In this document: one piece after another, positions 5,412-38,080 of the stretch
Layout of the letters: every line of letters begins with the position of its first letter
Numbering within the stretch: the first letter of the stretch is position 1
Assembly (NCBI GenBank): GCA_947629875.1
Contig: CANRFK010000001.1
Location: forward strand, 1 to 40,242
From: an uncultured Clostridia bacterium
Lineage (GTDB): Bacteria > Bacillota > Clostridia > Christensenellales > Borkfalkiaceae
Direction: 5' to 3'
Length of the DNA: 40,242 bases
Notes under the pieces: generated by a model
Databases searched by the model: none
Told to the model about the DNA's origin: nothing
The model's input: only the letters and a program-made list of their open reading frames with translations
Made by a program: the position numbers and the translations under genes

Positions 5412-5427
5412 GGGAGAAATAAGCAAT

Positions 5428-15770: not shown

Positions 15771-15813
15771 TATGCACCTCAAAAGTCGGACACTTTTGGA
15801 GGTGCATATTTTT
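15771..15813 (+). terminator. rho-independent terminator after the 1714-aa gene
   Basis: tatgcacctcaaaagt...acttttggaggtgcata stem (one bulge) followed by TTTTTAT. Confidence 0.6.
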
Positions 15814-16096
15814 ATGGAAAAGAGGGGAGCGGGCCGAGGGGGGAGCCACCCGAGAAAGAGGCGGAAGATGATCTATCGGCAAAAACCAAGGAATGAGCCC
15901 GACGAAATCCCGAGCTCATTCGCAATTCGGCCGACGGGATCTTTGTCCGATTTTGGGAGATCTGTTTCGTCTGTGCGAGGGGATGGGTATTTACAAAAAT
16001 TCGTGTTCGAGTTGTTAAAATATTGACAAAATTTACACATAAACTTCAAAAAATGAACCAATTAAAAAATTTTTTGAAAAAATTTATCAAAACCTA

Positions 16097-16124
16097 TTGA
16101 CACGGCAATTTTTTATGATATAAT
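16097..16124 (+). promoter_or_regulatory. sigma70 promoter of the GH27 gene
   Basis: TTGACA 16097-16102, 16-nt spacer, TATAAT 16119-16124, with TG at 16116-16117 (extended -10). Confidence 0.6.
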
Positions 16125-16128
16125 GAAG

Positions 16129-16158
16129 GCAGAATATATTAACGTTAACCTATTCTGC
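16129..16158. promoter_or_regulatory. LacI-family operator-like palindrome overlapping the transcription start region of the GH27 gene
   Basis: gcagaatatattaacgttaacctattctgc is a near-perfect 30-bp palindrome centred on CG at 16143-16144. The core atattaacgttaa matches the perfect palindrome at 17544-17563. Confidence 0.55.
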
Positions 16159-17320: not shown

Positions 17321-17508
17321 GCTGTGCGCGTTGCGGGCGGGGGCTCACGTTCAACGAACTCGGTTTGAACGCAAAATACAACCCACAGGACAAAAAACTC
17401 TGCATCGGATGCCTTGCGGAGTGGTTGGATGTTCCGCGCGTGCGGCTGGAGGAGAAGATAAAGGAGTTTCTCCGCATCGGCTGCGCGATGTTTGCGGAAG
17501 AACATTGA
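17317..17508 (+). CDS. 63-aa Cys-rich (zinc-ribbon-like) protein, function unknown
   Basis: The ATGA overlap with the GH27 stop (ATG 17317-17319 / TGA 17318-17320) implies translational coupling. The sequence has CARCG...(22 residues)...CIGC plus a C-terminal Cys. Confidence 0.5.
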   Translation: MSCARCGRGLTFNELGLNAKYNPQDKKLCIGCLAEWLDVPRVRLEEKIKEFLRIGCAMFAEEH

Positions 17509-17543
17509 AGGACGGATTTTTCAAATCCGTAAAATTTGCGCCA

Positions 17544-17563
17544 ATATATTAACGTTAATATAT
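17544..17563. promoter_or_regulatory. perfect 20-bp palindrome: candidate LacI-family operator (autoregulatory)
   Basis: atatattaacgttaatatat, centred on CG. It overlaps a candidate promoter (TTGCGC 17536-17541, 17-nt spacer, TATATA 17559-17564) directly upstream of the LacI gene. Confidence 0.6.
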
Positions 17564-17579
17564 ACAAAAAGGAGACCTT

Positions 17580-18557
17580 ATGGCAAGAGGAAGGGTCACG
17601 GTAAAGGATATCGCGCGGGAGGCGGGCGTCACGGCACAGACCGTATCGCGCGTGTTCCGCAATCAGGGATATCTTTCGGAGGACACCAAAAAGAAGGTGC
17701 TCGAAGCGGCGAAATTGCTCAACTACGTGCCCAACCAAACGGCGCGTTCGCTGCGCATCGGCAACGAGAAGAGCATCGCGGTGGTGTTCGACGGGCTCAG
17801 GAACGTCTATTTCTCGGTGATGATCGACTATCTCTACCGCGAGGCGAACCGCCTCGGGTACGCGCTCACCACGGTGTTCCGCGCCTATGAGCATGAGATC
17901 ACGGAAAAGGTGTATCTCGACGCACTTTCCCTGGGCGCGTCGGCGGTCGTCAGTTTCCTCGAGGCCTCGCCAGAACTCGGCGGGGCGGTGCGCAGGTACG
18001 GCGTGCCCGTGCTCGTTCTCGGGCGGCGCACGAACATCCCCGAGCTCGACTATGTGACGACGGACGATGAGAAGGGCGGCAGGCTCGCCGCGGAAAAACT
18101 CATCTCAAAGGGCTGCAAGAAATTCCTGTACGTTGCCGAAGGCATGGGCATGACGTGCGTGCAGGATCGCGGCAAGGGCTTTATCGACGCTCTCGCCGCG
18201 CACGGCCATTCGGCAAAGGTCATCGATATCAACGGCGGATTTGCAGAGCAGATCGCCGCTTTGGAGGCGGAGGGGTTCATCCCGGACGGCGTTTTCTGTT
18301 TTTCGGATATGATCGCCTTCTACGTGCTCACCAATCTGAAGGGCGAAAAGTACGCCTCCATGAAAGTCGTCGGCTACGATGATATCGGGGCGGAGGTACC
18401 GTTCCCGCTGCGGCTCACCTCCGTTGGCGTGGACAAGGCGGAATATACGCGCTATGCTCTGGGCAAGCTCGTGGCGAAGATCGAGAACGACGGGCACGAA
18501 GAACTGGCCATCCGCGAGCGGTACGATGTATTCCTTCATGAGGGAGAAACGGCGTAA
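17580..18557 (+). CDS. LacI/GalR-family transcriptional regulator
   Basis: N-terminal HTH VTVKDIAREAGVTAQTVSRVFRN...KVLEAAKLLNYVPNQTARSLR followed by a periplasmic-binding-protein-like sugar-sensor domain. AGGAG SD. Confidence 0.9.
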   Translation: MARGRVTVKDIAREAGVTAQTVSRVFRNQGYLSEDTKKKVLEAAKLLNYVPNQTARSLRIGNEKSIAVVFDGLRNVYFSVMIDYLYREANRLGYALTTVFRAYEHEITEKVYLDALSLGASAVVSFLEASPELGGAVRRYGVPVLVLGRRTNIPELDYVTTDDEKGGRLAAEKLISKGCKKFLYVAEGMGMTCVQDRGKGFIDALAAHGHSAKVIDINGGFAEQIAALEAEGFIPDGVFCFSDMIAFYVLTNLKGEKYASMKVVGYDDIGAEVPFPLRLTSVGVDKAEYTRYALGKLVAKIENDGHEELAIRERYDVFLHEGETA

Positions 18558-18595
18558 GCCGAGCTGATATAGGAAAATAAGGAGGAAAAAATAGG

Positions 18596-21500
18596 ATGAA
18601 AAAACGCAAGTTGTTGGTCGGGCTCTGTATGGCGGTAACGTTCATACTCTGCGGAGCATTTGTGGCGTGCGGCGGGAAAAAACCCGACACGGACGACGGG
18701 GGGGGGTCATCTTCAACAGCAGTTTGGGATCTCAAACTCGAAGGTGAAAAGACTCGCACGCTGGAGATCGACGAGGCGATCACCGACCCCGTTACCGACA
18801 CGCTCACGTGGACGGTGACGAAGGACGGCGAGACCGTTGCGACGGAGCCCGTTGCCGTGACGCTCTCGGGCACGTCGGTCACGTACGACGAGGCTTCCCA
18901 CACGGTGACCGCCGTCAAGGAAGGCAAGACGACGGTTACACTCACACTCACGGGACATACCGATGTGCTGCCCGTCAGCGTGACGTATGAAGTTGTAGAT
19001 TATTTCTTCTCCCGCGAAGTGCAGAGGGGCACGTTGAATTTCTCGGGAGAATCCACCGGGCAGGTTCGCATCATGGGCGGGCAGGCGACCCTCGTTGCCG
19101 AGCGCAAGGCGACGGCATGGGTCTTCCGCACGACGCTCTCTGCCGTCGATTACAACACGGGAGAGGCGTTCGGCGTCGGTTCTTTCCTCGATAACGGCGA
19201 CCACGCGCTGTGGTTCGGGATGCAGAACAAGGACAGCCAGCCCGACGGAAAGTTCAGCGTCTATTTGAGGGACTTCTATGCGGGCTGGGGCAGCGCCAAA
19301 TATGACGGCAATCCCGAAGGATACAGCAACCGCACATTCGATCTTACAAACGGCGTTGAATGCGAGATTATCCGCAACGGCGACAATTATTATTACACGA
19401 TCGGAACATATTACGGAACTTATACGGCGCAGGAGACTGCGGCGACTTACCCCGGCGTTTTTTCGCAGGAGAGAGTCGTCACGGTCTCCCATTTTTCCGT
19501 GTCTTACGATGAAAATGAGGTGAGCGAGGCGGCCGCAGCGTATGCGACAAAGGGCGTCGCTTCCGTCGTCATCAATGAGACGAGAGCGGTGCGCCTTCTC
19601 AAGGGTTCGACGCAGAAGTACACCGCGAACTGCTATCCCGCAGACAAGAGCGCGGGCGCGACGGTCGCTTGGTCGCTCGACAAGGAAGGCATGACCGCGG
19701 GACAGGAGGGCACCACCATCGATGCGGACGGCACGCTGCACCTTTCCGATGATGCGGCGGGGAAAGTGACCGTCGTATGCACGGCGGGCGACGCGAAGGA
19801 TACCCTCACCGTGACCATCATCGCAGCGTCCGAGGACAAGGAAAACAGTCAGCTCTCCGTGAAGGGCGGCGTCATTCTCGAGGACGACAGCGGCGACATC
19901 GTATTTCCCGACTACATGGCTTCGACGAACGGCGTCGGCAACGAACAGAGCTATGAGGATGCGGGCTACGGCGCCATTCTCAAACAAAAGGTGACGGGCA
20001 ACTTCTCCGTGGAGTTCACCGTCTCCGAATATGTCGCCTATGCGCAAAATCCCAAACTCATGATCTCGCTCGGCGCGGATCACAACCAGTTCTATGTCGT
20101 CTATACATCGGGCTACTGCCGCATCGAAACGTACACCCGTCATGTCTATGACAATGCGGTGCACGACAACGACTGGGTGAACAGCGGCAGTTTTGAAAAA
20201 TTCGATGCGAACGCTTCCCATACCTTCAAGATCGAAGTGCGCAACGGCATTTACAATGTGACGGTGGACGGAACCGCGCTCACCTTCACGCCGTTCAACG
20301 GCGGAAACGGCGGACCGGAATCCACCCTTGTGCGCAGTTACGAACACTGCGCTGCCGAACTTCCCATCCGCATTGCGACGAACGGCGTCTCGGCGCGCGT
20401 CAGCGACATCACCGTGACGCAGAATGAAAGGACGCTTCCCGAATACTTCCACTTCGGCAATGCGACGACGGTAGAAAACGGCATTGAGATGCAGTGCTAC
20501 GACGGCACTCCCGACAGCTTGGCTTGGGCGCAGGCGCGCACCCGCGTCATCCGCACGGCGGCAAACAGGACGGGCGATTGCAACCTCACGATGAACATCA
20601 CATTCAGCGCGGCGATGCACGACGGCAAGGCGATCGTCCTTCTCGGGAATACGCAGGAACTGCAATTCTGCAACAAGATCGCGGCAGGGCAGGGGATCGT
20701 CCTGCAACTCGTTGACGGACCCGCCTTCGGCAAAACGTACGCCGTGCCCTGCGAAGCGGGCGCGGGCGGCACCTACACCATTGCCCTCCGCATCGAGCGG
20801 AAGGGGAACGAAAACCGCATCATTGCGAACGGCGAGGAGATCTGCCGCACCGACTATGCGTTCGGCGAGCACCTGCAATTCTCCGTGTTCAATATGCGCA
20901 GCGACGAAAACTCCGTCACCGTGAAGTTCACCGATATTGTGTTCGGCGACTATGAGGAGACCAAGGTCTACACAGTTGAGGATCTCACCAAGGACGTCAC
21001 GCTCTCCGTCACAGGACAGCATGAAGTAACGTTCACGGTGCACTGCAACGGCACCCCCATACACGATGAGGACTACACCGTTGAAGTGACGACGGAGGAG
21101 AAGAACTTTATTTCCTACGACGAGGGCAGCAAGAAGGTCACGGCGCTTGCGGCGGGCGAGGAGACGCTTACGATCAACATCAAGGTGGACGATGAAGTCG
21201 TCTGTACGGCGACCGTCACGTTCCACATCACCGCACGCGAGACGGCGGACTCCAACGAGAATTGGCAGGTGAAGGGCGGCGTTGTGCTCTACACCGACGA
21301 TAATTCCATCGAATTCCCCGAAGCATACCAAAGCACGAACGGCGTCGGCGATGAATATAACTATGCGGACGCGGATTACTCCGCCAACTACAAGAAAACC
21401 GTCACGGGCGACTTCTCCATCGAGTTCACCGTGGAGAATTACAAATCGGTGGGCGACTATCCTAAACTCATGATCTCGCTCGGCGGTACGCACAACCAAT

Positions 21501-23779
21501 TCTACGTCGCCTACAACCGCTTGGGAACGATCAACCGCGTCGAGAGCTTCACCGAATCCGTTTCGGGCAACAGTTGGTACGTCGGCGGTTGGATCAACAG
21601 CGCGGAGTTTGCCTCTTTCGATGTAAACGCTTCCCATACTTACAAGATCGAAGTAAAGAACGGCGTGTACACTGTTTCGTTGGACGGCAAGCCGCTTACC
21701 TTCCACGAGGGCGAAAATCTCAACGACGTGCGCACGCCCGTGCGGAAGCTTGCCGATTACGCCACCGAACAGCCCATCCGTATCTCGACGAGCGGCGTCT
21801 CCTGCACAGTCCGCAACATTAAGGTTGAAACGACGCCGACGACCATTCCCGATTACTTCGGCTACGGCGATAAGGCGCAGCCGGAGGAGAACGGCGTTGC
21901 CATGGAGTTCACCACTGGCACTTGGGATCAGGCGCGCAACCGCGTTGTCCGCAAGGAGCCCATCCAAAAAGGCGACTTCACGCTCACGATGAACCTTGTG
22001 TTCAGCGCGGCGATGGAGGACGGCAAGGCGATCGTCAACCTCGGCGGAAGAAAGGAACTTCACTTCTGCAACAAGATCAAGTCGGGACAACTCTGTCTTG
22101 AACTTGTCAATCTCGGCGACGACTTTGAGAATATCACTTGGCCTGCGGTGGGTGACTACAATATTCCCTATGAGGCAGGCGAGGACGGCACCTACACCGT
22201 TGCGCTTCGCATCGAGCGGAGCGGGAACATCAACCGCATCATTGCGAACGGCGTAGAACTCTGCAAGCCCGATTACGAGATCGGCTCCTACCTTCGCTTC
22301 TCGATCTTCAACGAGAAGGGAGACGATGCCTCCGCTACCGTGAAGTTCACCGATATTACGTTCGGCGAATATGAAGAACTCGATATCTACACCATCGAAG
22401 AGCTCAACAGGAAGGTCACGATCTCCAAGGGAAAAGAGCAGGAACTTACCTATACGGTGTACCGCAACGGCACCCCCATCCATGACGGCTACACCGTTGA
22501 AGTGACGACGGAGGAGAAGGACTTTGTCTCCTACGCGGACGGCAAGATCAAGGCGGTCGCTGTCGGCGAAGAGAACGTGACGATCACAATCAAGGTGAAC
22601 GGCGACGTCGTCTGCACGGCGGTCGTTCAGGTCACCGTCAGCGAGCGTCCCACGGCGACGGAGAACAGCGATTGGACGGTGAAAGTCGGTGATAAAGGCG
22701 GAATTACGCTCTATACCGATGATAACTCCTTTGAGTTCACCACCACGGAGGACGGCGTCGTCAATGAGTTTGATTATGTGGAAGCGGATTACTCCGTCGA
22801 CTACAAACACAAAGTGATCGGCGACTTCTCCATTGAGTTTACCGTAAAGAACTATACGGCGAAAGAAAATTTCCCCAAACTCATGATCTCCCTCGGCGGC
22901 TCGAACAATCAGTTCTATGTGGTCTACAACCGCGAAGGACACGTCAACCGCATTGAGACGCTCACAAAGTCCGTCAACGCAAGCAAAGAGATGTTTTGGG
23001 ACGGTTCGTGGCTCAGTTCGGATGAATTCGCCGAATTTGATACCGCAGCAGACCATACTTACAAGATCGCGGTCGTGGAGGGGATATACCATATCTATCT
23101 CGACAATCAGGAATTGACGAAATTCCATTTGGATAACAGTCAGGATATGCGTACCCTCATCCGCCGCTATGAGGATTGGTCTACCGAACAACCCATCCGC
23201 ATTGCGACAAAGGGAGCCACCTGCACGGTAAGCGATATCAAGGTGACGAACGGCTCGATCGAGGACGTGACGAAGAACAAGTTCTTCTCCTTCACCAAGG
23301 GCGCGTCGAACCTCACCGAGGACGGCTTCACGATGGCATTTGAGGTTCATAGCTTTGATGCAAATGACAAGTGCCAAAACAAGGTGTTCTATACGGGAAC
23401 GTTGTCCGAAAATTTCACGTTGGAATACACGCTCAAATTCTCCGACGATATGACGGACTCCAAGTGGATGACGGTCATCGGCGGATATACGTTCGGTATT
23501 GAAAACAAAATCAAAGGCTCTGCGGCAAAATTGAATTTCATCCTGAATGGCGCAGGTGCCGATTGGGGCGATTGTCCGATCACCGTTGAAAAAACGGACA
23601 CTTATACCGTAAAAATCACTCGTGCAGACGGGCAGATGAAGTTCTTCGTCAACGATACGGAAGTGAAGAGCGCCGCCGCCAACAATGCCACTACACTCGC
23701 TTTTTGGACGTTCAACAGCAACGACTATGCAGGCGAGGCGGGCGTCACCGCGACCGTCTCCAACCTCACCATTTCGTAA
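18596..23779 (+). CDS. giant (1727 aa) surface lipoprotein with Ig-like (Big_2-like) domains and three tandem supermodules of about 470 aa each
   Basis: AGGAGG SD. Signal peptide with lipobox AFVAC. Big_2-like segments are present (for example KEGKTTVTLTL). The repeated blocks VKGG...TGNFSVEFTV...PKLMISLG...NQFYVVY...HTFKIEV.NG.Y.V..DG...PIRIAT.G recur three times. Confidence 0.8.
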   Translation: MKKRKLLVGLCMAVTFILCGAFVACGGKKPDTDDGGGSSSTAVWDLKLEGEKTRTLEIDEAITDPVTDTLTWTVTKDGETVATEPVAVTLSGTSVTYDEASHTVTAVKEGKTTVTLTLTGHTDVLPVSVTYEVVDYFFSREVQRGTLNFSGESTGQVRIMGGQATLVAERKATAWVFRTTLSAVDYNTGEAFGVGSFLDNGDHALWFGMQNKDSQPDGKFSVYLRDFYAGWGSAKYDGNPEGYSNRTFDLTNGVECEIIRNGDNYYYTIGTYYGTYTAQETAATYPGVFSQERVVTVSHFSVSYDENEVSEAAAAYATKGVASVVINETRAVRLLKGSTQKYTANCYPADKSAGATVAWSLDKEGMTAGQEGTTIDADGTLHLSDDAAGKVTVVCTAGDAKDTLTVTIIAASEDKENSQLSVKGGVILEDDSGDIVFPDYMASTNGVGNEQSYEDAGYGAILKQKVTGNFSVEFTVSEYVAYAQNPKLMISLGADHNQFYVVYTSGYCRIETYTRHVYDNAVHDNDWVNSGSFEKFDANASHTFKIEVRNGIYNVTVDGTALTFTPFNGGNGGPESTLVRSYEHCAAELPIRIATNGVSARVSDITVTQNERTLPEYFHFGNATTVENGIEMQCYDGTPDSLAWAQARTRVIRTAANRTGDCNLTMNITFSAAMHDGKAIVLLGNTQELQFCNKIAAGQGIVLQLVDGPAFGKTYAVPCEAGAGGTYTIALRIERKGNENRIIANGEEICRTDYAFGEHLQFSVFNMRSDENSVTVKFTDIVFGDYEETKVYTVEDLTKDVTLSVTGQHEVTFTVHCNGTPIHDEDYTVEVTTEEKNFISYDEGSKKVTALAAGEETLTINIKVDDEVVCTATVTFHITARETADSNENWQVKGGVVLYTDDNSIEFPEAYQSTNGVGDEYNYADADYSANYKKTVTGDFSIEFTVENYKSVGDYPKLMISLGGTHNQFYVAYNRLGTINRVESFTESVSGNSWYVGGWINSAEFASFDVNASHTYKIEVKNGVYTVSLDGKPLTFHEGENLNDVRTPVRKLADYATEQPIRISTSGVSCTVRNIKVETTPTTIPDYFGYGDKAQPEENGVAMEFTTGTWDQARNRVVRKEPIQKGDFTLTMNLVFSAAMEDGKAIVNLGGRKELHFCNKIKSGQLCLELVNLGDDFENITWPAVGDYNIPYEAGEDGTYTVALRIERSGNINRIIANGVELCKPDYEIGSYLRFSIFNEKGDDASATVKFTDITFGEYEELDIYTIEELNRKVTISKGKEQELTYTVYRNGTPIHDGYTVEVTTEEKDFVSYADGKIKAVAVGEENVTITIKVNGDVVCTAVVQVTVSERPTATENSDWTVKVGDKGGITLYTDDNSFEFTTTEDGVVNEFDYVEADYSVDYKHKVIGDFSIEFTVKNYTAKENFPKLMISLGGSNNQFYVVYNREGHVNRIETLTKSVNASKEMFWDGSWLSSDEFAEFDTAADHTYKIAVVEGIYHIYLDNQELTKFHLDNSQDMRTLIRRYEDWSTEQPIRIATKGATCTVSDIKVTNGSIEDVTKNKFFSFTKGASNLTEDGFTMAFEVHSFDANDKCQNKVFYTGTLSENFTLEYTLKFSDDMTDSKWMTVIGGYTFGIENKIKGSAAKLNFILNGAGADWGDCPITVEKTDTYTVKITRADGQMKFFVNDTEVKSAAANNATTLAFWTFNSNDYAGEAGVTATVSNLTIS
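18698..18706 (+). repeat. poly-G (G9) homopolymer in the 5' coding region (codons 35-37, GGG GGG GGG)
   Basis: Counted directly: gacgac-ggggggggg-tcatct, 10 codons after the lipobox Cys. Confidence 0.95.
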
Positions 23780-23800
23780 CGCATGGCAAACGGAGGTATC

Positions 23801-26101
23801 ATGAAAAAATTTATCAGCATTTTATGTTCGGTCGTGTTGGCGTGCGTGTTCCTCCTTGCGGGGTGCGGCGGGTCCGCCGCGCCCCCTGCGGGGACGCCGT
23901 CGCTCCGCCTGCGCAGTGAAAAAGAGCAGGCGCTCAAAGTGGGCGAGGGGATCACGCTCGTCTGGACGACAGCAAACACCGAGGAAGGCGTGACGTTCGC
24001 TTCCTCCGATAAAGCCGTCGTCACGGTGGATAACTACGGCTCGGTGGAAGCCGTCGGCACGGGCGAGGCGGATGTCACCATCACCCTCGTCGAGGATACG
24101 TCGGTCTCCGAGAAGGTGCATTTCACGGTCACGCGCAACTTCTTCATGCAGGAAAACGGCTATAAGAACGGCACCATCGATTTCACGAACGCCGAAACGG
24201 GCGGCACCGTCCTCATCAAGGACGGACAGGCGCAGCTCCTCGTCGAGCGTCCCGGGCAGGCGTGGTTCTTCAAGTGCCACTTGAAGCGCACGGGCTGCAC
24301 GAACGGCGATACATGGGGCAGATGGGGCGTGGGCTCCTTCCTCGTGAACGCGGGTACCCCCATCGGCGAAGTCATGCTGTGGGCGGGCTTCCAAAACAGG
24401 GATGAAAACGCAAATACATGCGTTCCCTACTACGGCGGCTGGCGCACGACGGGCAACGCGCAGGAGACGGAGGTCGAACTCACAACCTCTCCCATCGAGA
24501 TGGGCGGGGAAGCGGACGTCACCATCATCCGCCTCGGCACCAAACACTACGTCATCTTCGAGTGCGGCGACGAAGTTGTCAAGACGGTCGTCGACATCGA
24601 AAAATTTGCGGGCAAGGATACCTTCCCGGGCGTGTTCGGACAAAATCAGGTCATCGAAGTCTCAAATTACGACGCTTCCAACGAGGAAGACGAAGTGCTC
24701 GCCGCGCTCGATACCTTCCAGCTCGCCGAAGAAGTGGAAGTCAACGGGCTCGACAATCGCCTCATCGCGGGCAGAGAATACGACCTCACCGCGTCCGTCT
24801 ATCCCGCGGTCACCGTCAACAAAAACGTGACATGGGGTATGGAAACTGCGAAGGAGGGCGTCACGCTCACCCCCGCGGGACACCTCACCGTGGGCGCAAA
24901 TGTGCGCGGCGATATCACCGTGCGCGTCACGGCGCAGTCGGGCGAGAACGTCACAAAGACCCGCACCTTCACCGTCGTCGCCCCGCCGACCTCATCCTCG
25001 TCTCTCTTCGAGACGGAGATGTACATCGGCGAGAGCGGCAACATGACCGCAGAGGCGGCGGGTGCAACATTCACCGCGGGAGAGAATTACCTTCCCCTGA
25101 AAACGAGCGGGGAAACGTGGTACGTCTCGGCGACCGTACAGGGCGCAGAGCAGAAAGACGGCGTGCGCGCGGGATTTTTGAGCGCGGCGGCGGGCTATAC
25201 GAAGTACTTCCGCTACGGCATTGCGGGCAGTGGCGGCACGGCGCGCCATGCCGAATACGGCGACGGGTACGGGGAAACGTTCACCCTCAATTACGCCGCC
25301 AACGGCGATACGGCGCACGGCTTTATGGGCGCCAACACCATCGGGCTTCTGAAAGACGGCGCGTCTTACTATCTCTTCGCGAACGGCAAACTGATCGCCA
25401 AAAAAGAGGCAGCGTTTGCGGGTGAGACCTTCCTCGTCCTCTATGCGGAGGGATGCGGCGTGACCTTCTCCAACGTCACCGTCAAGACGGGCACAGAGGC
25501 GGCCGCAGAGCTCGAAAAGCATGCCTTCTATGTCGGCGGCTACGTCACCAAGACGGGGAACGTCTACAAGCTCGCAGGCGAGGACTTCGGCGAGGCGAAC
25601 AACATGAACTGGCCTCCCGATAACGACTACATGAACGGGCTCAAATTCGCCCAAGCGATCAAGGGCGACTACACCATAGAGTTCACCATGTCCGAGATAA
25701 AGCCCTACGGCAGCTCCTATGACGGAAAGGTGCTCGTCTATCTCAAGAGCGAACGGGTGACGGCCTCCATCCAATTCGTCATCAAGGGCAACAGTTCGTT
25801 CCCCACGGTCGCCCTCTGCACCAACCTCGACGACAATTCCTGGGACGAATACACGTTGCCCGCGGGCGTCGATCTGCTCAACGGCGAAACGCAGGTGAAG
25901 ATCGTCAAGAAGGCGGCGGGGGCGGAGCTCTGGCTCAACGGCACGCAGATAACTGCGGTCACGAAGAGCGGCGCCACGGTGGATGTGGACACGCTCCTGC
26001 GCAACAACGGGTATTGGAATGCGGACACCGCCTGCACGCCCGGCATTGGGTCGTTCAAGTGCGGCGTCACCATCACGAACCCCGTCATCACCCAATCATA
26101 A
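23801..26101 (+). CDS. surface lipoprotein (about 766 aa), paralogous to the N-terminal part of the 1727-aa protein
   Basis: GGAGG at 23792-23796 supports the ATG at 23801; the track ORF starts at 23783. Lipobox LLAGC. A Big_2-like domain (KVGEGITLVW...GTGEADVTITL) is followed by a module alignable by eye with the upstream protein (GQAQLLVERPGQAWFFK...WGVGSFL...GFQNRD versus GQATLVAERKATAWVFR...FGVGSFL...GMQNKD). Confidence 0.8.
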   Translation: MKKFISILCSVVLACVFLLAGCGGSAAPPAGTPSLRLRSEKEQALKVGEGITLVWTTANTEEGVTFASSDKAVVTVDNYGSVEAVGTGEADVTITLVEDTSVSEKVHFTVTRNFFMQENGYKNGTIDFTNAETGGTVLIKDGQAQLLVERPGQAWFFKCHLKRTGCTNGDTWGRWGVGSFLVNAGTPIGEVMLWAGFQNRDENANTCVPYYGGWRTTGNAQETEVELTTSPIEMGGEADVTIIRLGTKHYVIFECGDEVVKTVVDIEKFAGKDTFPGVFGQNQVIEVSNYDASNEEDEVLAALDTFQLAEEVEVNGLDNRLIAGREYDLTASVYPAVTVNKNVTWGMETAKEGVTLTPAGHLTVGANVRGDITVRVTAQSGENVTKTRTFTVVAPPTSSSSLFETEMYIGESGNMTAEAAGATFTAGENYLPLKTSGETWYVSATVQGAEQKDGVRAGFLSAAAGYTKYFRYGIAGSGGTARHAEYGDGYGETFTLNYAANGDTAHGFMGANTIGLLKDGASYYLFANGKLIAKKEAAFAGETFLVLYAEGCGVTFSNVTVKTGTEAAAELEKHAFYVGGYVTKTGNVYKLAGEDFGEANNMNWPPDNDYMNGLKFAQAIKGDYTIEFTMSEIKPYGSSYDGKVLVYLKSERVTASIQFVIKGNSSFPTVALCTNLDDNSWDEYTLPAGVDLLNGETQVKIVKKAAGAELWLNGTQITAVTKSGATVDVDTLLRNNGYWNADTACTPGIGSFKCGVTITNPVITQS

Positions 26102-26110
26102 GGAGGTAGC

Positions 26111-29340: not shown

Positions 29341-30396
29341 GTGGCTCGCATGACAACGGCAAGCGAATATGCGCTCAAACGGAGCAAGCGGAAGCAGTTC
29401 TTCAAGAATTACGGCATCGTTTTGCTGTTTCTCGGGCCGTTCATCTTCTTCTTCCTGCTCTTCTGCGTCTATCCGCTCTTTTACGGCATCGTGATGTCGC
29501 TGATGCGGTATAACATCGCCGATCCTTCGAAGAACGAGTGGAGGGGGTTCTCCTATTTTCAGACGCTCCTCTCCAACAGCAACAGCATTTACAACACCGA
29601 GTTTTGGTACTCGATGAAGAATACCGCGCTGTTTGCCGTCATTCTCGTGCCGCTTGCCATTCTCGTGCCGCTCGCCATTGCCGTTCTCGTGAACAGCAAG
29701 CCGCGCGGCTACAAAGTGTTCCGTGCGCTCATCTATTTCCCGTCCATTTTGCCCGTCTCGGCGAGCGGCGTCATCTTCATCTCGCTCTTCGGCACCAACT
29801 TCGGCTACATCAACCAATGGCTGGGACAGACGATCGGATGGCTCGATCAAACGACGACGGCGTGGTTCGTCATCATCCTGCTCTGTCTGTGGGGTGGATG
29901 GGGCGGCAACTTCATCATTTTGAGCGCAGGGCTCAAAAACGTCGATAAGAGCCTCTATGAGGCGGCGAGCGTGGACGGCTGCACGGGCATCCGCCGGATG
30001 TTCGCGGTGACGCTCCCCGCCATCAAGCCGCAGCTCATCGTCTGCCTCTTCACCACCATCATCGGCTATTTCGGGCTGTACGGGCAGGTCTACGTGCTCA
30101 CCAACGGCGGGCCCGCCAACCCCGATACCGGCGTCGGCACGACTGCCACCATCATGTGGTATCTGCAGTCGCTCATGAACTCCGGACAATACGATATTTA
30201 CGGCATGGTGAGTGCGATGGGGCTGACGCTCGGCGTGTTCATCGGCTGCATTACGGGGATCCAACTGTTTCTTACGCGTGAACGCAAGAGCGGCACCAAG
30301 CTCGCCCGCGCCTTTGCCGCATACAAGGCGGAAAAGGCGGAGAAGGCATCGGAGCCCGTGCCCGCCGTGCGGGAGGAGGCAAACGGAAATGAGTAA
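29341..30396 (+). CDS. sugar ABC transporter permease (MalF/UgpA-like)
   Basis: Multi-TM protein with the EAA-loop region (KSLYEAASVDGCTGIRRMFAVTLPAIKP). The GTG start at 29341 lies 7 nt after GGAGGG; an alternative ATG is at 29350. It has an unusual charged C-terminal tail. Confidence 0.85.
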   Translation: MARMTTASEYALKRSKRKQFFKNYGIVLLFLGPFIFFFLLFCVYPLFYGIVMSLMRYNIADPSKNEWRGFSYFQTLLSNSNSIYNTEFWYSMKNTALFAVILVPLAILVPLAIAVLVNSKPRGYKVFRALIYFPSILPVSASGVIFISLFGTNFGYINQWLGQTIGWLDQTTTAWFVIILLCLWGGWGGNFIILSAGLKNVDKSLYEAASVDGCTGIRRMFAVTLPAIKPQLIVCLFTTIIGYFGLYGQVYVLTNGGPANPDTGVGTTATIMWYLQSLMNSGQYDIYGMVSAMGLTLGVFIGCITGIQLFLTRERKSGTKLARAFAAYKAEKAEKASEPVPAVREEANGNE

Positions 30397-31372
30397 AGTT
30401 CTTCTCGCCGCCATTATCGTCGTCTGCACCGTCTGCTTCGCCATGGTCGTGCTCGATTTTGTCGTAGTGGGGTTGAAAAAACGCAAGGAACTCGGCGAAG
30501 GCAGGGTGGCGCGGTATCTCTCCAAAAACCTGTTCCGCCTCAACGCGTTCGTCTTTTTGCTCCTGTTCTGCATCGTATGGCTCGTGCCCATCGTCGTGGG
30601 CGTCATCGGCTCCTTTACGTCGCAGTACGCATTCGAGAACCACCCGGGCGAGCTCATCCCGTCGGACGGGTTTACCTTCGATAACTACATCGCCCTGTTC
30701 AGCAAGTACGATACGAACGGCGTGCGCCTTCCCGTGGAGCGCTGGATCCTCAACAGTTTCATCGTCTCTACGGTCACAACGGTGCTCTATCTCACCATCG
30801 CGGGGTTCGCGGCTTACGCCTTTGTATTTTTGCGCTTCCGCGGACAGAGGATCGTATTTTACGTGCTCATCTTCACGATGGTCATCCCGGGGGTCGCCAC
30901 CATGACGGCGCAGCTCGCAAACATGGCCAACCTCGGCATCTCAAAGTCGCTGTTTGCACTCATCCTGCCGAGCCTCGGCGGCGTGGGGGGACTGTACCTC
31001 ATCCGCCAGTTCTTTTTGGGCATCCCGCAGGACCTCATCGAATCGGCGCGCATCGACGGGTCGAGCAACCTCCGCATCTTCGTCAAAATCGTCTTACCGC
31101 TTGCGAAATCCGTCTTTCTCGTGCAGGGGCTGTTCTGCTTCATGGGCGCGTGGAACGATCTCCTGTGGCCGCAGGTCATCCTCGGCACGGCGGATAAGTC
31201 GCTCTGGACGTTGCAGGTCGGCATCGCGTACATCGCGGGCAGCAAGACGGCGAACAGCATCGGCATCAACCTCGCAAGCGCCATCGTGAGCGCCGTGCCC
31301 ATCCTCATTCTGTATATCTTTACGCAGAACAAGATCATCGAAGGCGTTGCCGCCACGGGCGTCAAACGTTGA
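30389..31372 (+). CDS. sugar ABC transporter permease (MalG/UgpE-like)
   Basis: The ATG at 30389 overlaps the upstream stop by 8 nt and has GGGAGGAGG upstream. EAA loop: DLIESARIDGSSNLRIFVKIVLPLAK. The R-rich N-terminal extension of the track ORF (from 30278) is rejected. Confidence 0.85.
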   Translation: MSKVLLAAIIVVCTVCFAMVVLDFVVVGLKKRKELGEGRVARYLSKNLFRLNAFVFLLLFCIVWLVPIVVGVIGSFTSQYAFENHPGELIPSDGFTFDNYIALFSKYDTNGVRLPVERWILNSFIVSTVTTVLYLTIAGFAAYAFVFLRFRGQRIVFYVLIFTMVIPGVATMTAQLANMANLGISKSLFALILPSLGGVGGLYLIRQFFLGIPQDLIESARIDGSSNLRIFVKIVLPLAKSVFLVQGLFCFMGAWNDLLWPQVILGTADKSLWTLQVGIAYIAGSKTANSIGINLASAIVSAVPILILYIFTQNKIIEGVAATGVKR

Positions 31373-31386
31373 ATTACGGAGCAGAC

Positions 31387-32931
31387 ATGGAAAAAAATAT
31401 CACATTGCAGGAAGCAAGAACCCAATACAAGGAAAACAAGGGAAGAGTCGTAGCGGAAGAGGCGGGCGGCTTTGTCGTGCTGCTACGGGACATCAACAAG
31501 ATTTACGATAACCACGTTCAGGCGGTCTACGATTTCAACCTGTCCATCGAACGGAACGAGTTCATCGTCCTCGTCGGACCCTCGGGCTGCGGCAAGTCGA
31601 CGACGCTCCGCATGATCGCGGGGCTCGAAGAGATCTCCTCGGGCTATCTCTACATCGACGGCGTGCTCGCCAACCACCTCGAAAGCAAGGATAGGGACAT
31701 TGCAATGGTATTCCAGAGCTACGCGCTCTATCCCAACATGACGGTGTACGACAACATCGGCTTCGGGCTTGCCGTCCGCCGTATTCCCAAGGAGGAGATC
31801 AGGCAAAAGGTGTTCGAGGCGGCGGAGATCCTCGACCTCGGCCCCTACCTCGACCGCAAGCCGCGCGAGCTCTCGGGCGGACAGATGCAGCGCGTCGCCC
31901 TCGGGCGGGCGATCGTAAGGAACGCCAAGCTCTTCCTCATGGACGAGCCGCTCTCCAACCTCGATGCCAAACTCCGCGTGCAGATGCGCAGTGAGATCGT
32001 CAAGCTGCACAAGCGCATCTCGGCGACCACCGTCTACGTCACGCACGACCAGACGGAGGCAATGACGATGGCGGACCGCATCGTCGTCATGAACAAGGGC
32101 TTCGTCCAGCAGATCGGAACGCCCTCGGAGATATACAGCGAGCCCGCCAACGTCTTTGTCGCCACCTTTATCGGCAGTCCTCCCATGAACGTGTTCCGCG
32201 CACAGATGCGCGACGGCGCGATTTGGGAAGGGGAGAGCGGCGTCACGCTGCCCGCCGGCACGGACGAGACGTTCGGCGCGTTTGTCGCCCAAAAGATCGC
32301 CTATTTCGGCGAACTCAAAGGGCGGTGCGAGGCGGCGATGAAGGAGGCGGTCTCGCAGGCGTGCGAGGCGTTCGGCGCATCCTCCAAGCGGACGGCGGCG
32401 CTCACCGCGGCATACGAAAGCGGCGAATGGCGCACCGTCATCCGTCTCCTCAAAAAGTACGCGGGCCCGCTCATGGAGGAGGAGCGCGCCGTCGCGGCGT
32501 CCCTGCAACAGGCAGGTTCCGCGGAGGCGTTCGTCAAAAAGGAGGAGGCAGCCGTTCCCGAGAAGAAGCGCAAGCGTAAAGAGGAGAAGCCCGATCTGCA
32601 CACCCAAAACATTGGGCGCATCGAGGCATACCTCAAAGCGTACGAGAGCGCGGCGGCCGAGCGCGAACTCTTCATCGGCATCCGCCCCGAGCACATTCAT
32701 CTCGCGGACGAATTCAAGGGAGCGGCGAGCGAGCCGTTCACCGCCGTCGCCGATTTCGTGGAACTGCTCGGCAGCGAACTGTGCGTCTACTTCAACGCGT
32801 TCGGCGGCCGCCTCATCTGCAAACTCTCCGCCGACCGCCTCATCCGCATGGGCGAGGAAGTGCGGCTCTGTTTCGATATGGAAAAGCTCAAACTGTTCGA
32901 CGGCGTGGGCGGAATGCGGATCGTGAAATAA
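31387..32931 (+). CDS. ABC transporter ATP-binding protein (MalK/MsmK/UgpC-like) with a large insertion in the C-terminal regulatory domain
   Basis: Walker A GPSGCGKST, Q-loop VFQSYALYP, signature LSGGQMQRV, Walker B LFLMDEPLS, H-loop VTHDQ. The FIGSPPMN ... IGIRPEHI regulatory-domain blocks are separated by roughly 135 extra residues. The ATG at 31387 with GGAG upstream is preferred over the track's TTG at 31369. Confidence 0.9.
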   Translation: MEKNITLQEARTQYKENKGRVVAEEAGGFVVLLRDINKIYDNHVQAVYDFNLSIERNEFIVLVGPSGCGKSTTLRMIAGLEEISSGYLYIDGVLANHLESKDRDIAMVFQSYALYPNMTVYDNIGFGLAVRRIPKEEIRQKVFEAAEILDLGPYLDRKPRELSGGQMQRVALGRAIVRNAKLFLMDEPLSNLDAKLRVQMRSEIVKLHKRISATTVYVTHDQTEAMTMADRIVVMNKGFVQQIGTPSEIYSEPANVFVATFIGSPPMNVFRAQMRDGAIWEGESGVTLPAGTDETFGAFVAQKIAYFGELKGRCEAAMKEAVSQACEAFGASSKRTAALTAAYESGEWRTVIRLLKKYAGPLMEEERAVAASLQQAGSAEAFVKKEEAAVPEKKRKRKEEKPDLHTQNIGRIEAYLKAYESAAAERELFIGIRPEHIHLADEFKGAASEPFTAVADFVELLGSELCVYFNAFGGRLICKLSADRLIRMGEEVRLCFDMEKLKLFDGVGGMRIVK

Positions 32932-32949
32932 TTTTTGTGAGGAACGGAT

Positions 32950-33954
32950 ATGAAGAAGATAAATCTGATTGCCGCGGTCGCCTTGAGCGCACTCTTTCTC
33001 TTTGCCGGGTGCGGCGAGGGGCCCGATCCCAACGGCGAAGACCCCGGTCACAACGGAGAGGATCCGCCCGTTCCCGAACAGGTGACCCTCGAGATTGCCG
33101 ACGTCATAGCTTGGATCGACTGCGCGCCCAGCGAGTTCGTTCCCGTGTGGTCGGATTCCGCGCAGGCGGAACCGCTCGAATATGAGTACGACGAAACGCT
33201 CGTCGAGCTCTCGCCCGAGGCGCACACCGTAAAGGCGCTCGCGGAAGGGCTCTGCGAAGTGCGGGCGTATTCGGAAAATTTCTCGGTGGAATTTACCGTG
33301 GATTGCAGGGAGATCGGTATGGATATAGAAGAAAAATGGCGCACCGACGTCACGGGGTGGCATCCCGATTGGCCCACCCGTCTCGAAAATTTCAAAGCGC
33401 TTTGGAAGATGAGCGGCACCCCGGATACGACGGTCTTTGCGGGCGACAGCTTTTTCGACGCGAGCGGGTTCTGGACGAATTTCTACGATACGTACAACGG
33501 GAAAGACGCGCTCTGCTTCGGCATCGGCTCCACGCACTCCTATAATTGGGAATATCTCGCCGATCATCTCCTCGCCGATATGACGCCGCGCAATCTCGTC
33601 ATGCACATCGGCACCAACAACGTCTACGATCAGGGTGACACCGCCGATATGGCAACGGAGGCGCTGCAACGCATGTTCACCGTTCTGCACGACCGCCTTC
33701 CCGATACCCAGATCTGGTGGTTTACGATCACCCAACGCAGTTACGATGAGATGAAGCAGTACGACGTCTCGCTCGTCAACAAGGCGATGATGGCATGGTG
33801 CAAGGACAGGAGTTGGATCACCTGCCTCGATACGTCGCCGCTCTTCACGGCGGATATGCTGAAAGACAGCATCCATCCCAAGCTCGAAGAATACCGCGTT
33901 TTTGTGGACGCATTAAACGCCGCCGGCATCGAGATCGCAGATAGTACCCGTTAA
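32950..33954 (+). CDS. SGNH/GDSL-family esterase lipoprotein (candidate carbohydrate acetylesterase)
   Basis: Lipobox LFAGC. SGNH blocks are FAGDSF (block I), GIGSTH (block II-like), HIGTNNV (block III) and DSIHP (block V). There is an Ig-like N-terminal segment. Confidence 0.75.
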   Translation: MKKINLIAAVALSALFLFAGCGEGPDPNGEDPGHNGEDPPVPEQVTLEIADVIAWIDCAPSEFVPVWSDSAQAEPLEYEYDETLVELSPEAHTVKALAEGLCEVRAYSENFSVEFTVDCREIGMDIEEKWRTDVTGWHPDWPTRLENFKALWKMSGTPDTTVFAGDSFFDASGFWTNFYDTYNGKDALCFGIGSTHSYNWEYLADHLLADMTPRNLVMHIGTNNVYDQGDTADMATEALQRMFTVLHDRLPDTQIWWFTITQRSYDEMKQYDVSLVNKAMMAWCKDRSWITCLDTSPLFTADMLKDSIHPKLEEYRVFVDALNAAGIEIADSTR

Positions 33955-33969
33955 AGCGATCAAGAATGA

Positions 33970-33998
33970 TTGACATCTGCTCTTTTTTCAAGTAAAAT
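33970..33998 (+). promoter_or_regulatory. candidate internal promoter for the GH2 gene
   Basis: TTGACA 33970-33975, 17-nt spacer, TAAAAT 33993-33998, in the 74-nt gap before the ATG at 34029. Confidence 0.45.
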
Positions 33999-34028
33999 GA
34001 GGTATCGACACATCACATAGGAGTCAGA

Positions 34029-35762
34029 ATGAAACCGATGCGTACGGAATATCCGCGCCCGCAGCTGCGGCGCGACGAGTGGCTTTCACTGAACGGCGAA
34101 TGGGAATTTTGCTTCGACGATGACGAGCGGGGCTTTCGGCTGCGCTACGATAGCGGCAAGGTGGCGCTTCCGCTCCGCATCCTCGTGCCGTTTTCCTATC
34201 AATACGAGGCAAGCGGGATCGGGGATACCGCCGACCATGCAATCGTGTGGTACCGCCGCACCTTTTCCGACTGTTCCCGCGGCAAGCGTACCCTTTTGTG
34301 CTTTAACGGAGCGGACCGCGAGACGGACGTCTGGATCAACGGACGCCATGCGGCGCGCCACATCGGCGGATTTGCGCCTTTCAGCGCCGATATCACGCCC
34401 TTCTTGAAGAGCGGCGAGAATACCATCGTCGTGCGTTGCGCCGACCCCAACGATCCCGCCGTGCCCCGCGGCAAACAGAGCTGGAAGGGCGCGTTCGGCT
34501 GTTGGTATGTCCCGAACACGGGCATCTTCCAAAGCGTTTGGCTGGAATATTTCGGCGAGGACGGGCTTTCCGACGTCCGCATCGCAACGGATGTGGATCA
34601 ATGCAGCTTCTTCGGCGAGCTCACAACGTTCTATGGCAAGGCGGATTCCGCCGAGTTTACCGTCACGTTCAACGGCGAGATCTTAAAGAGGAGCGCCTTT
34701 TCCCTCGAAGGGATCACGACGCGCTATACCGTGCAACTCATGGAACCCGATTCCATCGATCCGCTCTATTGCTGGACGCCCGAACACCCCAATCTCTTCT
34801 ATCTCGATATCGTCCTCTTTTGCGGCGGAAAGGAGACCGACCGTCTCCACACCCGCTTCGGGATGCGCAAGATCTCGGTGGACGGCGACGGGAACATCTG
34901 CCTCAACAACGAAAAACTCTATCAGCGGCTCGTTCTCGACCAAGGCTATTGGCGGGAGAGCGGGCTTACGCCGCCGAGCGCCGAGGCGTTGAAGCGGGAT
35001 ATCCTCCTCGCCAAACAGATGGGGTTCAACGGCGCGCGCAAGCATCAGAAATTCGAGGACCCGTACTATTATTATTACGCCGAAGAACTCGGTTTTCTCA
35101 CGTGGTGCGAGATGCCGTCCGCATACTCCTTCTGCACGCGGGAGGAATGCGCCATTCTGCGCGAATGGGAGGAGATCGTCGTTGCCGCACGCAACTTCAC
35201 GAGCATCGTGTGCTATGTCCCGCTCAACGAGAGCTGGGGCGTGCGCAATCTCCGTAGCGACCGCGACCAGCAAAATTTCGCCCGCGCACTCTATTATGCG
35301 ACCAAGTCGCTCGATCCTTACAAACTCGTCTCCGTGAACGACGGCTGGGAAAATCTCGACGAGACGGACTTCATTACCATCCACGACTATGCGAACAGAG
35401 GGGACGGCTTTGCGGAAAAATACCGCACCGAAACGTTGGATTCCGTCTATATCGCGCACAGAAAGATCATGGCGGACGGATGCCGCTATCACGGACAGCC
35501 CGTGCTCCTCACGGAATTCGGCGGCATCGCCATGGCGGAGGAGACGGGCAAGGGCAATTGGGGCTATAACGAGGGAGCGAACGACTGCGAGGAATTTTAC
35601 ACGCGGTATGAAAATCTCATCGACGGCATCCGCAGGGCTCCCTTCTCGGGATATTGCTACACGCAGTTGACCGACGTCCAGCAGGAAGTGAACGGGCTTT
35701 TGTATTCCGACCGTGTGCCGAAATTCGACTTGAAGCGCATCGCCGAGCTCAACAGAAAATAA
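34029..35762 (+). CDS. GH2-family glycoside hydrolase (short, about 577 aa form), cytoplasmic
   Basis: YPRPQLRR...WLSLNGEWEF N-terminus. Sugar-binding domain (LCFNGADRETDVWINGRHAARHIGGFAPFSADIT). TIM barrel with KQMGFNGARKHQK and VPLNESWG (acid/base Glu). Confidence 0.85.
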   Translation: MKPMRTEYPRPQLRRDEWLSLNGEWEFCFDDDERGFRLRYDSGKVALPLRILVPFSYQYEASGIGDTADHAIVWYRRTFSDCSRGKRTLLCFNGADRETDVWINGRHAARHIGGFAPFSADITPFLKSGENTIVVRCADPNDPAVPRGKQSWKGAFGCWYVPNTGIFQSVWLEYFGEDGLSDVRIATDVDQCSFFGELTTFYGKADSAEFTVTFNGEILKRSAFSLEGITTRYTVQLMEPDSIDPLYCWTPEHPNLFYLDIVLFCGGKETDRLHTRFGMRKISVDGDGNICLNNEKLYQRLVLDQGYWRESGLTPPSAEALKRDILLAKQMGFNGARKHQKFEDPYYYYYAEELGFLTWCEMPSAYSFCTREECAILREWEEIVVAARNFTSIVCYVPLNESWGVRNLRSDRDQQNFARALYYATKSLDPYKLVSVNDGWENLDETDFITIHDYANRGDGFAEKYRTETLDSVYIAHRKIMADGCRYHGQPVLLTEFGGIAMAEETGKGNWGYNEGANDCEEFYTRYENLIDGIRRAPFSGYCYTQLTDVQQEVNGLLYSDRVPKFDLKRIAELNRK

Positions 35763-35780
35763 GAATGCCTTGCGGCGCAA

Positions 35781-35808
35781 GAAGGGCGTACAGCCCTTTT
35801 TTGTTTCG
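35781..35808 (+). terminator. rho-independent terminator ending the long + strand gene string
   Basis: gaagggc-gtaca-gccctt followed by TTTTGTTT, 19 nt after the GH2 stop. Confidence 0.6.
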
Positions 35809-37906: not shown

Positions 37907-38080
37907 TTCTCTGCCTGCCATCTTCTTGTAGCCGGTGAGGCGCTCCTTGGGGCTCTCCTCCGTCTTCTTGAAGAGTTCTTCGCGGGCGGGAGAGGGAAAA
38001 GTTATTCTCTGCCTGCCATCTTCTTGTAGCCGGCGAGGCGCTCCTTGGAGCTCTCTTCCGTCTTCTTGAAGAGTTCTTCG
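37907..38080. repeat. tandem direct duplication (76-bp copies, 98-bp period) of the nifJ 3' end
   Basis: 37907-37982 and 38005-38080 align with 4 mismatches by eye. The proximal copy encodes the real C-terminus EELFKKTEESSKERLAGYKKMAGRE-stop. The distal copy would encode EELFKKTEESPKERLTGYKKMAGRE without a stop. Confidence 0.85.

Follow-up and report, generated by a model that had tools for sequence, protein, structure and literature searches.

Two multi-module lipoproteins as candidate glycan-capture proteins of a Gram-positive polysaccharide utilisation locus in uncultured gut Bacillota

A 40,242-nucleotide (nt) stretch from an uncultured Clostridia bacterium (GTDB Christensenellales; Borkfalkiaceae; assembly GCA_947629875.1, contig CANRFK010000001.1, positions 1–40,242, forward strand) carries a Gram-positive polysaccharide utilisation locus (gpPUL) in which two large lipoproteins, one of 1727 amino acids (aa) and one of 766 aa, are encoded next to each other. 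We call this whole stretch the window and count all coordinates from its first letter. On balance, we read the giant and the 766-aa protein as non-catalytic surface glycan-capture proteins that probably serve furanoside-directed import, a model that draws on their predicted folds, lipid anchors and conserved gene neighbourhood. The pair is laid out as follows, with immunoglobulin-like domains given as Ig and jelly-rolls as J1, J2, J3, jelly-roll A (JA) and jelly-roll B (JB):

18596–23779, + strand: giant lipoprotein, 1727 aa, lipobox Cys25
18596–19801, + strand: N-module of the giant (aa 1–402), Ig–J1–Ig
19802–21211, + strand: first repeat unit of the giant (aa 403–872); units are ~470 aa, built of jelly-roll A, jelly-roll B and Ig
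21212–22624, + strand: second repeat unit (aa 873–1343)
22625–23776, + strand: third repeat unit (aa 1344–1727)
23801–26101, + strand: 766-aa lipoprotein, with Ig at aa 38–118, J1 at 119–312, Ig at 313–402, J2 at 403–572 and J3 at 573–772

The giant holds about 2.8 copies of its repeat unit, the third of which is without the Ig domain. The copies are 40–57% identical as protein in a self-BLAST comparison and recur at the DNA level with a period of 1.41 kb. Because the DNA copies are just 65–84% identical, we rejected an assembly artefact or a recent duplication and take the duplication to be old. The N-module is 31% identical to the N-terminal half of the 766-aa protein, and this relationship is limited to the N-terminal ~400 aa; an earlier note on this DNA, which had called the shorter protein a paralog of the giant, was right for that part only. 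The true start of the second gene is probably the ATG at 23801. Its open reading frame (ORF) begins at 23783 and would encode 772 aa, and the ATG at 23801 is favoured by the GGAGG ribosome-binding site before it and by a product of 766 aa, a length shared by most homologs.

Sequence searches returned little for either protein. Pfam matched Big_2 alone in the 772-aa ORF and nothing usable at E ≤ 1 in the C-terminal half of the 766-aa protein; the giant had no match above threshold in Pfam and none in NCBIfam. Across both proteins, searches of Pfam, NCBIfam and PDB sequences gave nothing besides Big_2, and PDB profile searches gave nothing other than marginal galectin matches (E about 0.07) and Big_2-type matches. 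No jelly-roll module rose above any Pfam threshold. The sub-threshold Pfam matches among family members were to Laminin_G_3 (4e-5), 3keto-disac_hyd, TS_C and Gal-bind_lectin.

AlphaFold2 models built from the family alignments, and compared with the PDB by Foldseek, gave a far clearer picture. The model of the 766-aa protein (pLDDT 85) consists of Ig, J1, Ig, J2 and J3, hence three jelly-rolls, and that of repeat 2 of the giant (pLDDT 88) of jelly-roll A, jelly-roll B and Ig; the giant as a whole holds seven jelly-rolls. For the two models combined, matches at a Foldseek probability of 1.0 comprised laminin LG, BT3469, tandem galectins, neurexin LNS and the botulinum neurotoxin (BoNT) Hc region, together with the accessory β-sandwiches of the glycoside hydrolase (GH) family 43 arabinanase AbnA and of a GH32 levanase, and the Bacteroides surface glycan-binding protein (SGBP) SGBP-B. 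Taken singly, the 766-aa model matched laminin LG, BT3469, galectins, the AbnA accessory domains and SGBP-B, and repeat 2 matched BT3469/DUF1080, tandem galectins, laminin LG and BoNT Hc. BT3469 (4JQT) was the top match of the repeat unit and the second-best of the 766-aa model. E-values of 1e-7 to 5e-11 to laminin LG, galectins, BT3469 and neurexin LNS place the jelly-rolls in the concanavalin A (ConA)-like superfamily, with TM-scores that are low because multi-domain models were superposed whole. Neither model contains a propeller, a TIM barrel or another catalytic fold; all of their modules are ConA-like or Ig-like sandwiches. The proposal that these 7.5 kb of lipoprotein genes encode Ig-like and jelly-roll modules without a recognisable catalytic fold is borne out by both programs. 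Profile–profile comparison sorts the jelly-rolls into two classes, J3/JA/JB (91–96% probability) and J1/J2 (72% probability).

Homologs of the pair are few. Among 5.8 billion proteins there are 18 clusters of homologs for the giant and about 28 for the 766-aa protein, and a profile of the repeat unit recovered 50 proteins at E ≤ 1e-3, 40 of them at E ≤ 1e-10, among 1.84 billion representatives. Family members carry just Big_2 beside their jelly-rolls, the most distant matches are DUF1080- and DUF6250-type proteins, and no fusion of the jelly-roll family to a catalytic domain occurs among the members found by profile search. Twenty-seven homologs of the 766-aa protein measure 757–787 aa, have an invariant lipobox Cys and share ~80 invariant columns that include D, E, K, R, H, N and Q. 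The giant homologs range from 961 to 1842 aa, their module number varies, and the lipobox is present in all that are full-length.

Where their context was inspected, these homologs almost always lie in one conserved cassette. We labelled the loci L001–L022 and saw the cassette in L001–L020 and L022; it is present in at least 15 loci from metagenome-assembled genomes (MAGs) or metagenomes, which belong to Clostridia and Bacilli and whose GC contents span 0.26–0.60. The order giant, ~760-aa protein, GH43, solute-binding protein (SBP), permease, permease, ATPase, SGNH esterase is kept in every sufficiently long locus, with a LacI gene upstream in most, and GH43 directly follows the 766-aa gene wherever a cassette locus reaches that far. 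Synteny conservation, which had been put forward as a check, thus holds in every cassette locus inspected. Every giant or 766-aa homolog whose context was inspected sits in the cassette except one, P0018, where LacI and a giant-like gene are followed by a recombinase in what looks like a cassette remnant. A scan of species-representative genomes found 12 loci, hosted by a rabbit uncultured Clostridia MAG (81% identity), Candidatus Gallimonas, Candidatus Limihabitans, a Borkfalkiaceae MAG, 'Clostridiales' MAGs and Bacilli-type MAGs labelled Bacillales, Mollicutes, Enteromonas and Bacilli. The cassette has been shared among distant lineages, each of which imposed its own base composition.

Several loci depart from the common plan. 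What looks like a disrupted or remodelled copy lies at L021 (8436–16023, in the MAG GCA_965338545.1): the gene after LacI encodes a 1471-aa protein composed of four N-module-like repeats, and a serine recombinase gene comes next, where the rest of the cassette would be expected. A Bacilli MAG (L004, 5288–12322) has the giant split into genes of 891 aa and 635 aa and a weak GH16-like gene a few kb upstream, and a Borkfalkiaceae MAG (L014, 12157–15728) has two tandem GH43 genes.

In the window, the pair belongs to a string of ten genes, all on the + strand, in the order LacI, giant, 766-aa protein, GH43, SBP, two permeases, ATPase, SGNH esterase and GH2. Successive intergenic distances from LacI to GH2 are 38, 3, 9, −4, 0, −8, −4, 18 and 74 nt, the −4 being an ATGA overlap at 27817 and the −8 an overlap at 30389, and the genes are likely co-transcribed. 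GC content runs between 51 and 62% along the window, with no compositional break at the locus. With a LacI regulator, a CUT1 ABC system, GH43, SGNH, GH2 and GH27, the locus has the make-up by which gpPULs were defined (Sheridan 2016). A lipobox, a hydrophobic core and a positively charged N-terminus are found together in the giant, the 766-aa protein, GH43, the SBP and SGNH, and none of these features was found at the inspected N-termini of GH2, GH27, GH3 or GH13. From sequence, the first five are predicted to be extracellular and membrane-tethered and the latter four cytoplasmic. The gene string, overlaps, lipoboxes, operator and terminator described in the earlier note were all recovered in place, as was the co-location, by Pfam, of regulator, transporter and carbohydrate-active enzymes (CAZymes) that had made the operon PUL-like; the lipobox distribution likewise agrees with the claimed split between surface and cytoplasm. 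Its ten-gene string needs one change: the gene order stands, and GH2 is an accessory member that is missing from the closest relative.

We favour binding over catalysis for the jelly-rolls on several grounds. Their copy number varies, as is typical of binding or spacer proteins, there are no catalytic-domain fusions, and lectins predominate among the structural neighbours. The residues point the same way. J1 of both paralog families shares invariant W82, W102, R132, Q169 and Q31 and has no shared acidic pair, and JA conserves K85, N95, R109, E111, W127 and H142 on successive strands of the model, a polar-plus-Trp set that resembles the sites of galectin-type lectins. The conserved Arg, His, Tyr and Lys of jelly-roll A also raised the thought of a polysaccharide lyase (PL), which we rejected as unlikely, with no PL7 motifs and no uronate-processing genes in the locus.

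Several observations nevertheless weigh against a purely binding role. The ConA-like fold also houses GH16, GH7, GH12 and PL7 enzymes, and the top Foldseek match of the repeat unit, the DUF1080 protein BT3469, is annotated 'putative glycosyl hydrolase'. The 766-aa protein, near-fixed in length, is as tightly conserved as expected of an enzyme, and the numerous invariant polar residues fit an active site no less than a binding site. Moreover, the core cassette has no obvious endo-acting CAZyme, its sole surface glycosidase resembling an exo-acting GH43, and so one jelly-roll could be the depolymerase. These points, along with the weak 3keto-disac_hyd matches in Pfam, are what an alternative would build on in which at least one ConA-like jelly-roll, likeliest in the 766-aa protein, is a new glycoside hydrolase, lyase or 3-keto-glycoside-type enzyme that supplies the endo-activity. 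We judge this unlikely. The missing acidic pair in J1 speaks against it, as does the absence of a visible GH16-type ExDxxE motif from the sequences; the structural neighbours are mostly lectins and the module repeats variable in number; and neither an oxidoreductase nor an unsaturated-uronate pathway, as would go with a 3-keto or lyase mechanism, is encoded in the locus. As for the family signal itself, repeat 2 scores 16.9 bits against the PF06439 (DUF1080/3keto-disac_hyd) threshold of 26.8, and weak matches occur in 3 of 20 family members.

An improbable alternative is that the two lipoproteins are scaffolds with little glycan affinity that join GH43, SGNH and the SBP through shared N-terminal Ig domains. 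The giant, the 766-aa protein and SGNH do have a similar signal-plus-Ig N-terminus, the Ig-like stalk of SGNH being 25% identical to the N-terminus of the giant, and the strict gene order with its tiny gaps would suit an assembly. Scaffolding alone hardly accounts for ten lectin-fold modules that carry conserved clusters of Trp, Arg, Gln and His, however, and Pfam scans found no cohesin, dockerin or similar protein–protein modules. Less probable still is a role in adhesion to host mucus, host proteins or other cells, with a merely incidental place in a sugar operon: large Ig-rich lipoproteins are commonly adhesins, and giant lipoproteins with BspA-type leucine-rich repeats (LRR) and Flg_new domains are encoded just upstream in the window, but all context-inspected homologs of the pair sit in the same cassette in two bacterial classes, the genes lie under LacI operators, and Pfam, PDB and NCBIfam show no similarity to known adhesin families.

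The kind of glycan that the pair would capture can be narrowed through the enzymes of the locus:

16190–17320, + strand: GH27 (Melibiase_2), 376 aa, Pfam E = 4e-67, no signal peptide
26111–27820, + strand: GH43 lipoprotein, 569 aa, five-bladed propeller plus ~160-aa C-terminal domain, lipobox LAGC
32950–33954, + strand: SGNH/GDSL esterase lipoprotein, 334 aa, Pfam Lipase_GDSL_2
34029–35762, + strand: GH2 with Pfam GH2 N-terminal, Ig and TIM domains, cytoplasmic

The GH43 assignment is by Pfam (127 bits against a cutoff of 32), with GDP, WAPD and EGP motifs seen by eye and an Asp/Asp/Glu triad assigned by motif only. The enzyme is distant from solved structures and groups with arabinofuranosidase and xylosidase types, not with endo-arabinanases. 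Among solved structures the nearest is HoAraf43 (4QQS), an enzyme with activity on p-nitrophenyl-α-L-arabinofuranoside and an unknown natural substrate. The C-terminal ~160 aa (aa 410–569; 27338–27817) drew no Pfam match with the cutoff relaxed to E ≤ 1, and on visual inspection their last residues (...VGEVEIIGR) look like the end of a discoidin/CBM32-type domain. The SGNH translation shows the catalytic blocks GDSF, GTNN and DSIH. Against the PDB it returned nothing but a marginal match to platelet-activating factor acetylhydrolase, and its N-terminus gave nothing usable in Pfam at E ≤ 1.

The best PDB matches of GH2 are 7XYR (E = 2e-82; GH2_19), 7SF2 and 9J6N/9J6M (E = 2e-60; GH2_18, the Streptomyces galactofuranosidase ORF1110). 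The active-site and ligand residues of ORF1110 named in PMC11627007, K212, Y228, H401, N463, E464 (acid/base), E530 (nucleophile), Y551 and E594, are all kept in the window GH2, with positions counted in the printed alignment. The window enzyme is most similar to GH2_18/19 and retains their NE acid/base motif, their nucleophile Glu and the residues that contact the furanose; it is predicted to be cytoplasmic, in line with the about 90% of GH2_19 members that are non-secreted (PMC12243196). From these PDB relatives and conserved residues we predict a group III (GH2_18/19) α-L-arabinofuranosidase or β-D-galactofuranosidase, and not a β-galactosidase; the assignment is by similarity, and the sequence would suit a preference for either arabinofuranose (Araf) or galactofuranose (Galf). 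GH2 is present in L002/L003, L006 and L009 and absent from L008, where the operon ends after SGNH, and from L010–L019, a patchy presence that makes it an accessory gene.

With a group III GH2, the enzyme set points to a glycan with furanosyl (L-Araf or D-Galf) decoration rather than to β-galactosides, and the furanosidase-type pair of GH43 and GH2 narrows the substrate search accordingly. The target probably also carries α-galactosyl or β-L-arabinopyranosyl residues, the province of GH27, and ester groups. Arabinogalactan-protein, arabinan, arabinoxylan and a Galf-containing microbial glycan are all possible candidates, and a choice among them would be speculation. The earlier suggestion of arabinogalactan or another galactose/arabinose-rich substrate thus survives as Araf or Galf decoration, with arabinogalactan-protein still a candidate.

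Import would be carried out by a complete CUT1 system, with an SBP_bac_1/8 lipoprotein, two BPD_transp_1 permeases and a MalK-type ATPase:

27817–29340, + strand: CUT1-type solute-binding lipoprotein, 507 aa, Pfam SBP_bac_8 and SBP_bac_1
29341–30396, + strand: ABC permease, Pfam BPD_transp_1
30389–31372, + strand: ABC permease, Pfam BPD_transp_1
31369–32931, + strand: MalK/UgpC-like ATPase, 520 aa, start TTG 31369 or ATG 31387, with ABC_tran, OB_MalK and TOBE_2

Against the PDB, the SBP found remote relatives only, with no clue to its ligand. Many Bacillota CUT1 systems share an ATPase encoded elsewhere, whereas the cassette has its own. This ATPase carries a Lys/Glu-rich insertion of ~130 aa (about aa 300–430) between OB_MalK and TOBE_2, in which Pfam gave nothing usable at E ≤ 1; the extra length is kept in all cassette homologs (534–573 aa).

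Control of the locus appears to rest with the LacI-family repressor and two operators. The regulatory elements and boundaries are:

15774–15815, + strand: upstream terminator hairpin and T-run, GCACCTCAAAAGT-cggac-ACTTTTGGAGGTGC then ATATTTTTAT, 3' of the 1714-aa lipoprotein gene
16097–16157, + strand: promoter P1 and operator O1, TTGACA, 16-nt spacer, TATAAT, then ATATTAACGTTAACCT at 16136–16151
17317–17508, + strand: small ORF of 63 aa with CxxC...CxxC, overlapping the GH27 stop codon by ATGA, status uncertain
17536–17564, + strand: promoter-like P2 and operator O2, TTGCGC, 17-nt spacer, TATATA overlapping the palindrome
17580–18557, + strand: LacI-family repressor, 325 aa, Pfam LacI and Peripla_BP domains
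33970–33998, + strand: promoter-like site inside the 74-nt gap before GH2, near-consensus TTGACA, 17-nt spacer, TAAAAT
35781–35808, + strand: intrinsic terminator, hairpin with U-run, −21 kcal/mol, z = −3.1

O2 is a perfect 20-bp palindrome, ATATATTAACGTTAATATAT, at 17544–17563, and O1 is a second copy with 2 mismatches, directly 3' of P1 and 5' of GH27. An operator search allowing up to 3 mismatches found 2 matches, against 0.03 expected by chance; the same scan found no operator in the 74-nt gap before GH2. The repressor combines a LacI helix-turn-helix, a periplasmic-binding-protein-like effector domain and a palindromic operator with central CG near a promoter, as in the LacI/GalR family, and its best NCBIfam matches are RbsR-like and below cutoff. 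Six other loci (L006, L011, L012, L013, L014 and L016; locus GC 0.26–0.54) have a ATGTTAACGTTAACAT-type site ahead of LacI, in the interval from LacI to the giant gene, or in both places, and this recurrence across taxa is phylogenetic footprinting that supports LacI control. The closest relative (L001/L008) has the same operator just once, ahead of GH27, and in L008 GH27 is directly upstream of LacI across a gap of just 27 nt. This adjacency and the lone operator ahead of GH27 argue that GH27 belongs to the regulon; in L014 it stands between LacI and the giant gene. The small ORF, which has no Pfam match even at E ≤ 1, has no room in L008, and the same insertion in the window also carries O2 and P2. 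A locus extent of 17536–35808 had been proposed. Its terminator end stands and its start does not, since a promoter and the second operator precede GH27 upstream, and the hairpin at 15774–15815 marks the upstream boundary of the unit.

A working model follows from these parts. Without inducer, LacI would sit on the two palindromic operators, before GH27 and before its own gene. Upon induction, the five membrane-tethered lipoproteins would appear on the surface, where the giant with its seven jelly-rolls and the 766-aa protein with its three, spaced by Big_2 Ig domains, may hold the furanoside-decorated glycan. The captured polymer would be presented to the surface GH43 and the SGNH esterase, which would trim it. 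Judging by family membership, the large SBP would then bind the trimmed oligosaccharides and the dedicated ABC transporter, with its own ATPase, would import them. Cytoplasmic GH27 would finish the oligosaccharides, in this lineage presumably together with the group III GH2 furanosidase.

The rest of the window is less closely connected. Two other large proteins with N-terminal signal peptides are encoded ahead of the locus:

7465–10476: 1003-aa protein
10589–15733: 1714-aa protein

The 1003-aa protein has three Flg_new_2 repeats, and the 1714-aa protein a canonical lipobox, Flg_new and a BspA-type LRR_5 domain; L006 likewise has a 1660-aa Flg_new protein upstream of LacI. We considered and rejected kinship between these proteins and the studied pair, since BLAST finds similarity in the N-terminal signal region alone and the Pfam content differs. 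Further upstream (3111–6753) lie a cytoplasmic GH3 of permuted domain order (C-terminal, Fn3-like, N-terminal) and, 16 nt later, a cytoplasmic GH13, with no LacI operator copy nearby. A pyruvate:ferredoxin oxidoreductase fragment (38002–40197, − strand) and a fumarase C-terminus (31–474) at the window edges fit an anaerobic Bacillota genome.

How does this locus compare with known systems? The gpPULs defined by Sheridan et al. (2016, PMC5320581) likewise unite a LacI regulator, an ABC transporter with SBP lipoprotein and CAZymes in a co-oriented cluster, with extracellular processing and cytoplasmic finishing. Here, by contrast, the transporter has its own ATPase gene, and 7.5 kb go to two multi-module lipoproteins that stand alone and seem to be non-catalytic. 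According to PMC10318527, gpPULs published so far have no dedicated surface glycan-binding proteins and leave binding to carbohydrate-binding modules (CBMs) on endo-acting enzymes, and our literature search found no account of stand-alone glycan-binding lipoproteins in a gpPUL.

The closest counterparts in layout are SusE/SusF and SGBP-B (B. ovatus MLGUL, 6E57; levan utilisome, 8A9Y), which share the N-terminal lipid anchor, Ig-like stalk and tandem β-sandwich modules, are also encoded in a utilisation locus beside a surface enzyme and, as 6E57 and 8A9Y, are among the Foldseek matches. The window pair differs in having neither a SusC/D partner nor an outer membrane, in its ConA/LamG-type modules and in being two to five times larger. 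There are no SusC/D-like genes in the window, Pfam gives Big_2 only and no SusE or SusF family, and the closest genomes are Bacillota. The earlier comparison with SusE/F therefore stands as an analogy of anchor, stalk and β-sandwich layout and fails as kinship; the two lipoproteins are analogues, not relatives, of SusE/F. DUF1080 (PF06439; BT3469, 4JQT) and LamG/galectin proteins have the same ConA-like jelly-roll fold in tandem and a weak sequence signal, but the repeat unit is sub-threshold in Pfam and has about 50 relatives in the 1.84 billion representatives. The multimodular non-catalytic CBM proteins of marine Bacteroidota PULs (bioRxiv 10.1101/2023.09.07.556657) are likewise described as large multi-module surface proteins in glycan loci, although from another phylum, with other module families and SusC/D-based import.

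The pair most likely serves to capture a plant or microbial glycan at the cell surface, which would be a role so far undescribed for gpPULs, in a setting where the fold is common and the operon logic standard. More tentatively, with this pair a Gram-positive PUL could for the first time have a surface apparatus dedicated to non-catalytic glycan binding, the monoderm equivalent of the Bacteroidota SGBPs and utilisome, with J1/J2 and J3/JA/JB as at least two new Araf/Galf-specific CBM families; in a rarer variant, one module would instead be a new glycoside hydrolase family. If the pair does bind glycan, the SGBP concept extends to monoderm bacteria and new CBM families are added. The cassette, conserved in two classes of uncultured animal-gut Bacillota, would then also provide a handle on the carbohydrate niche of the Gallimonas, Limihabitans, Borkfalkiaceae and Bacilli MAG lineages.

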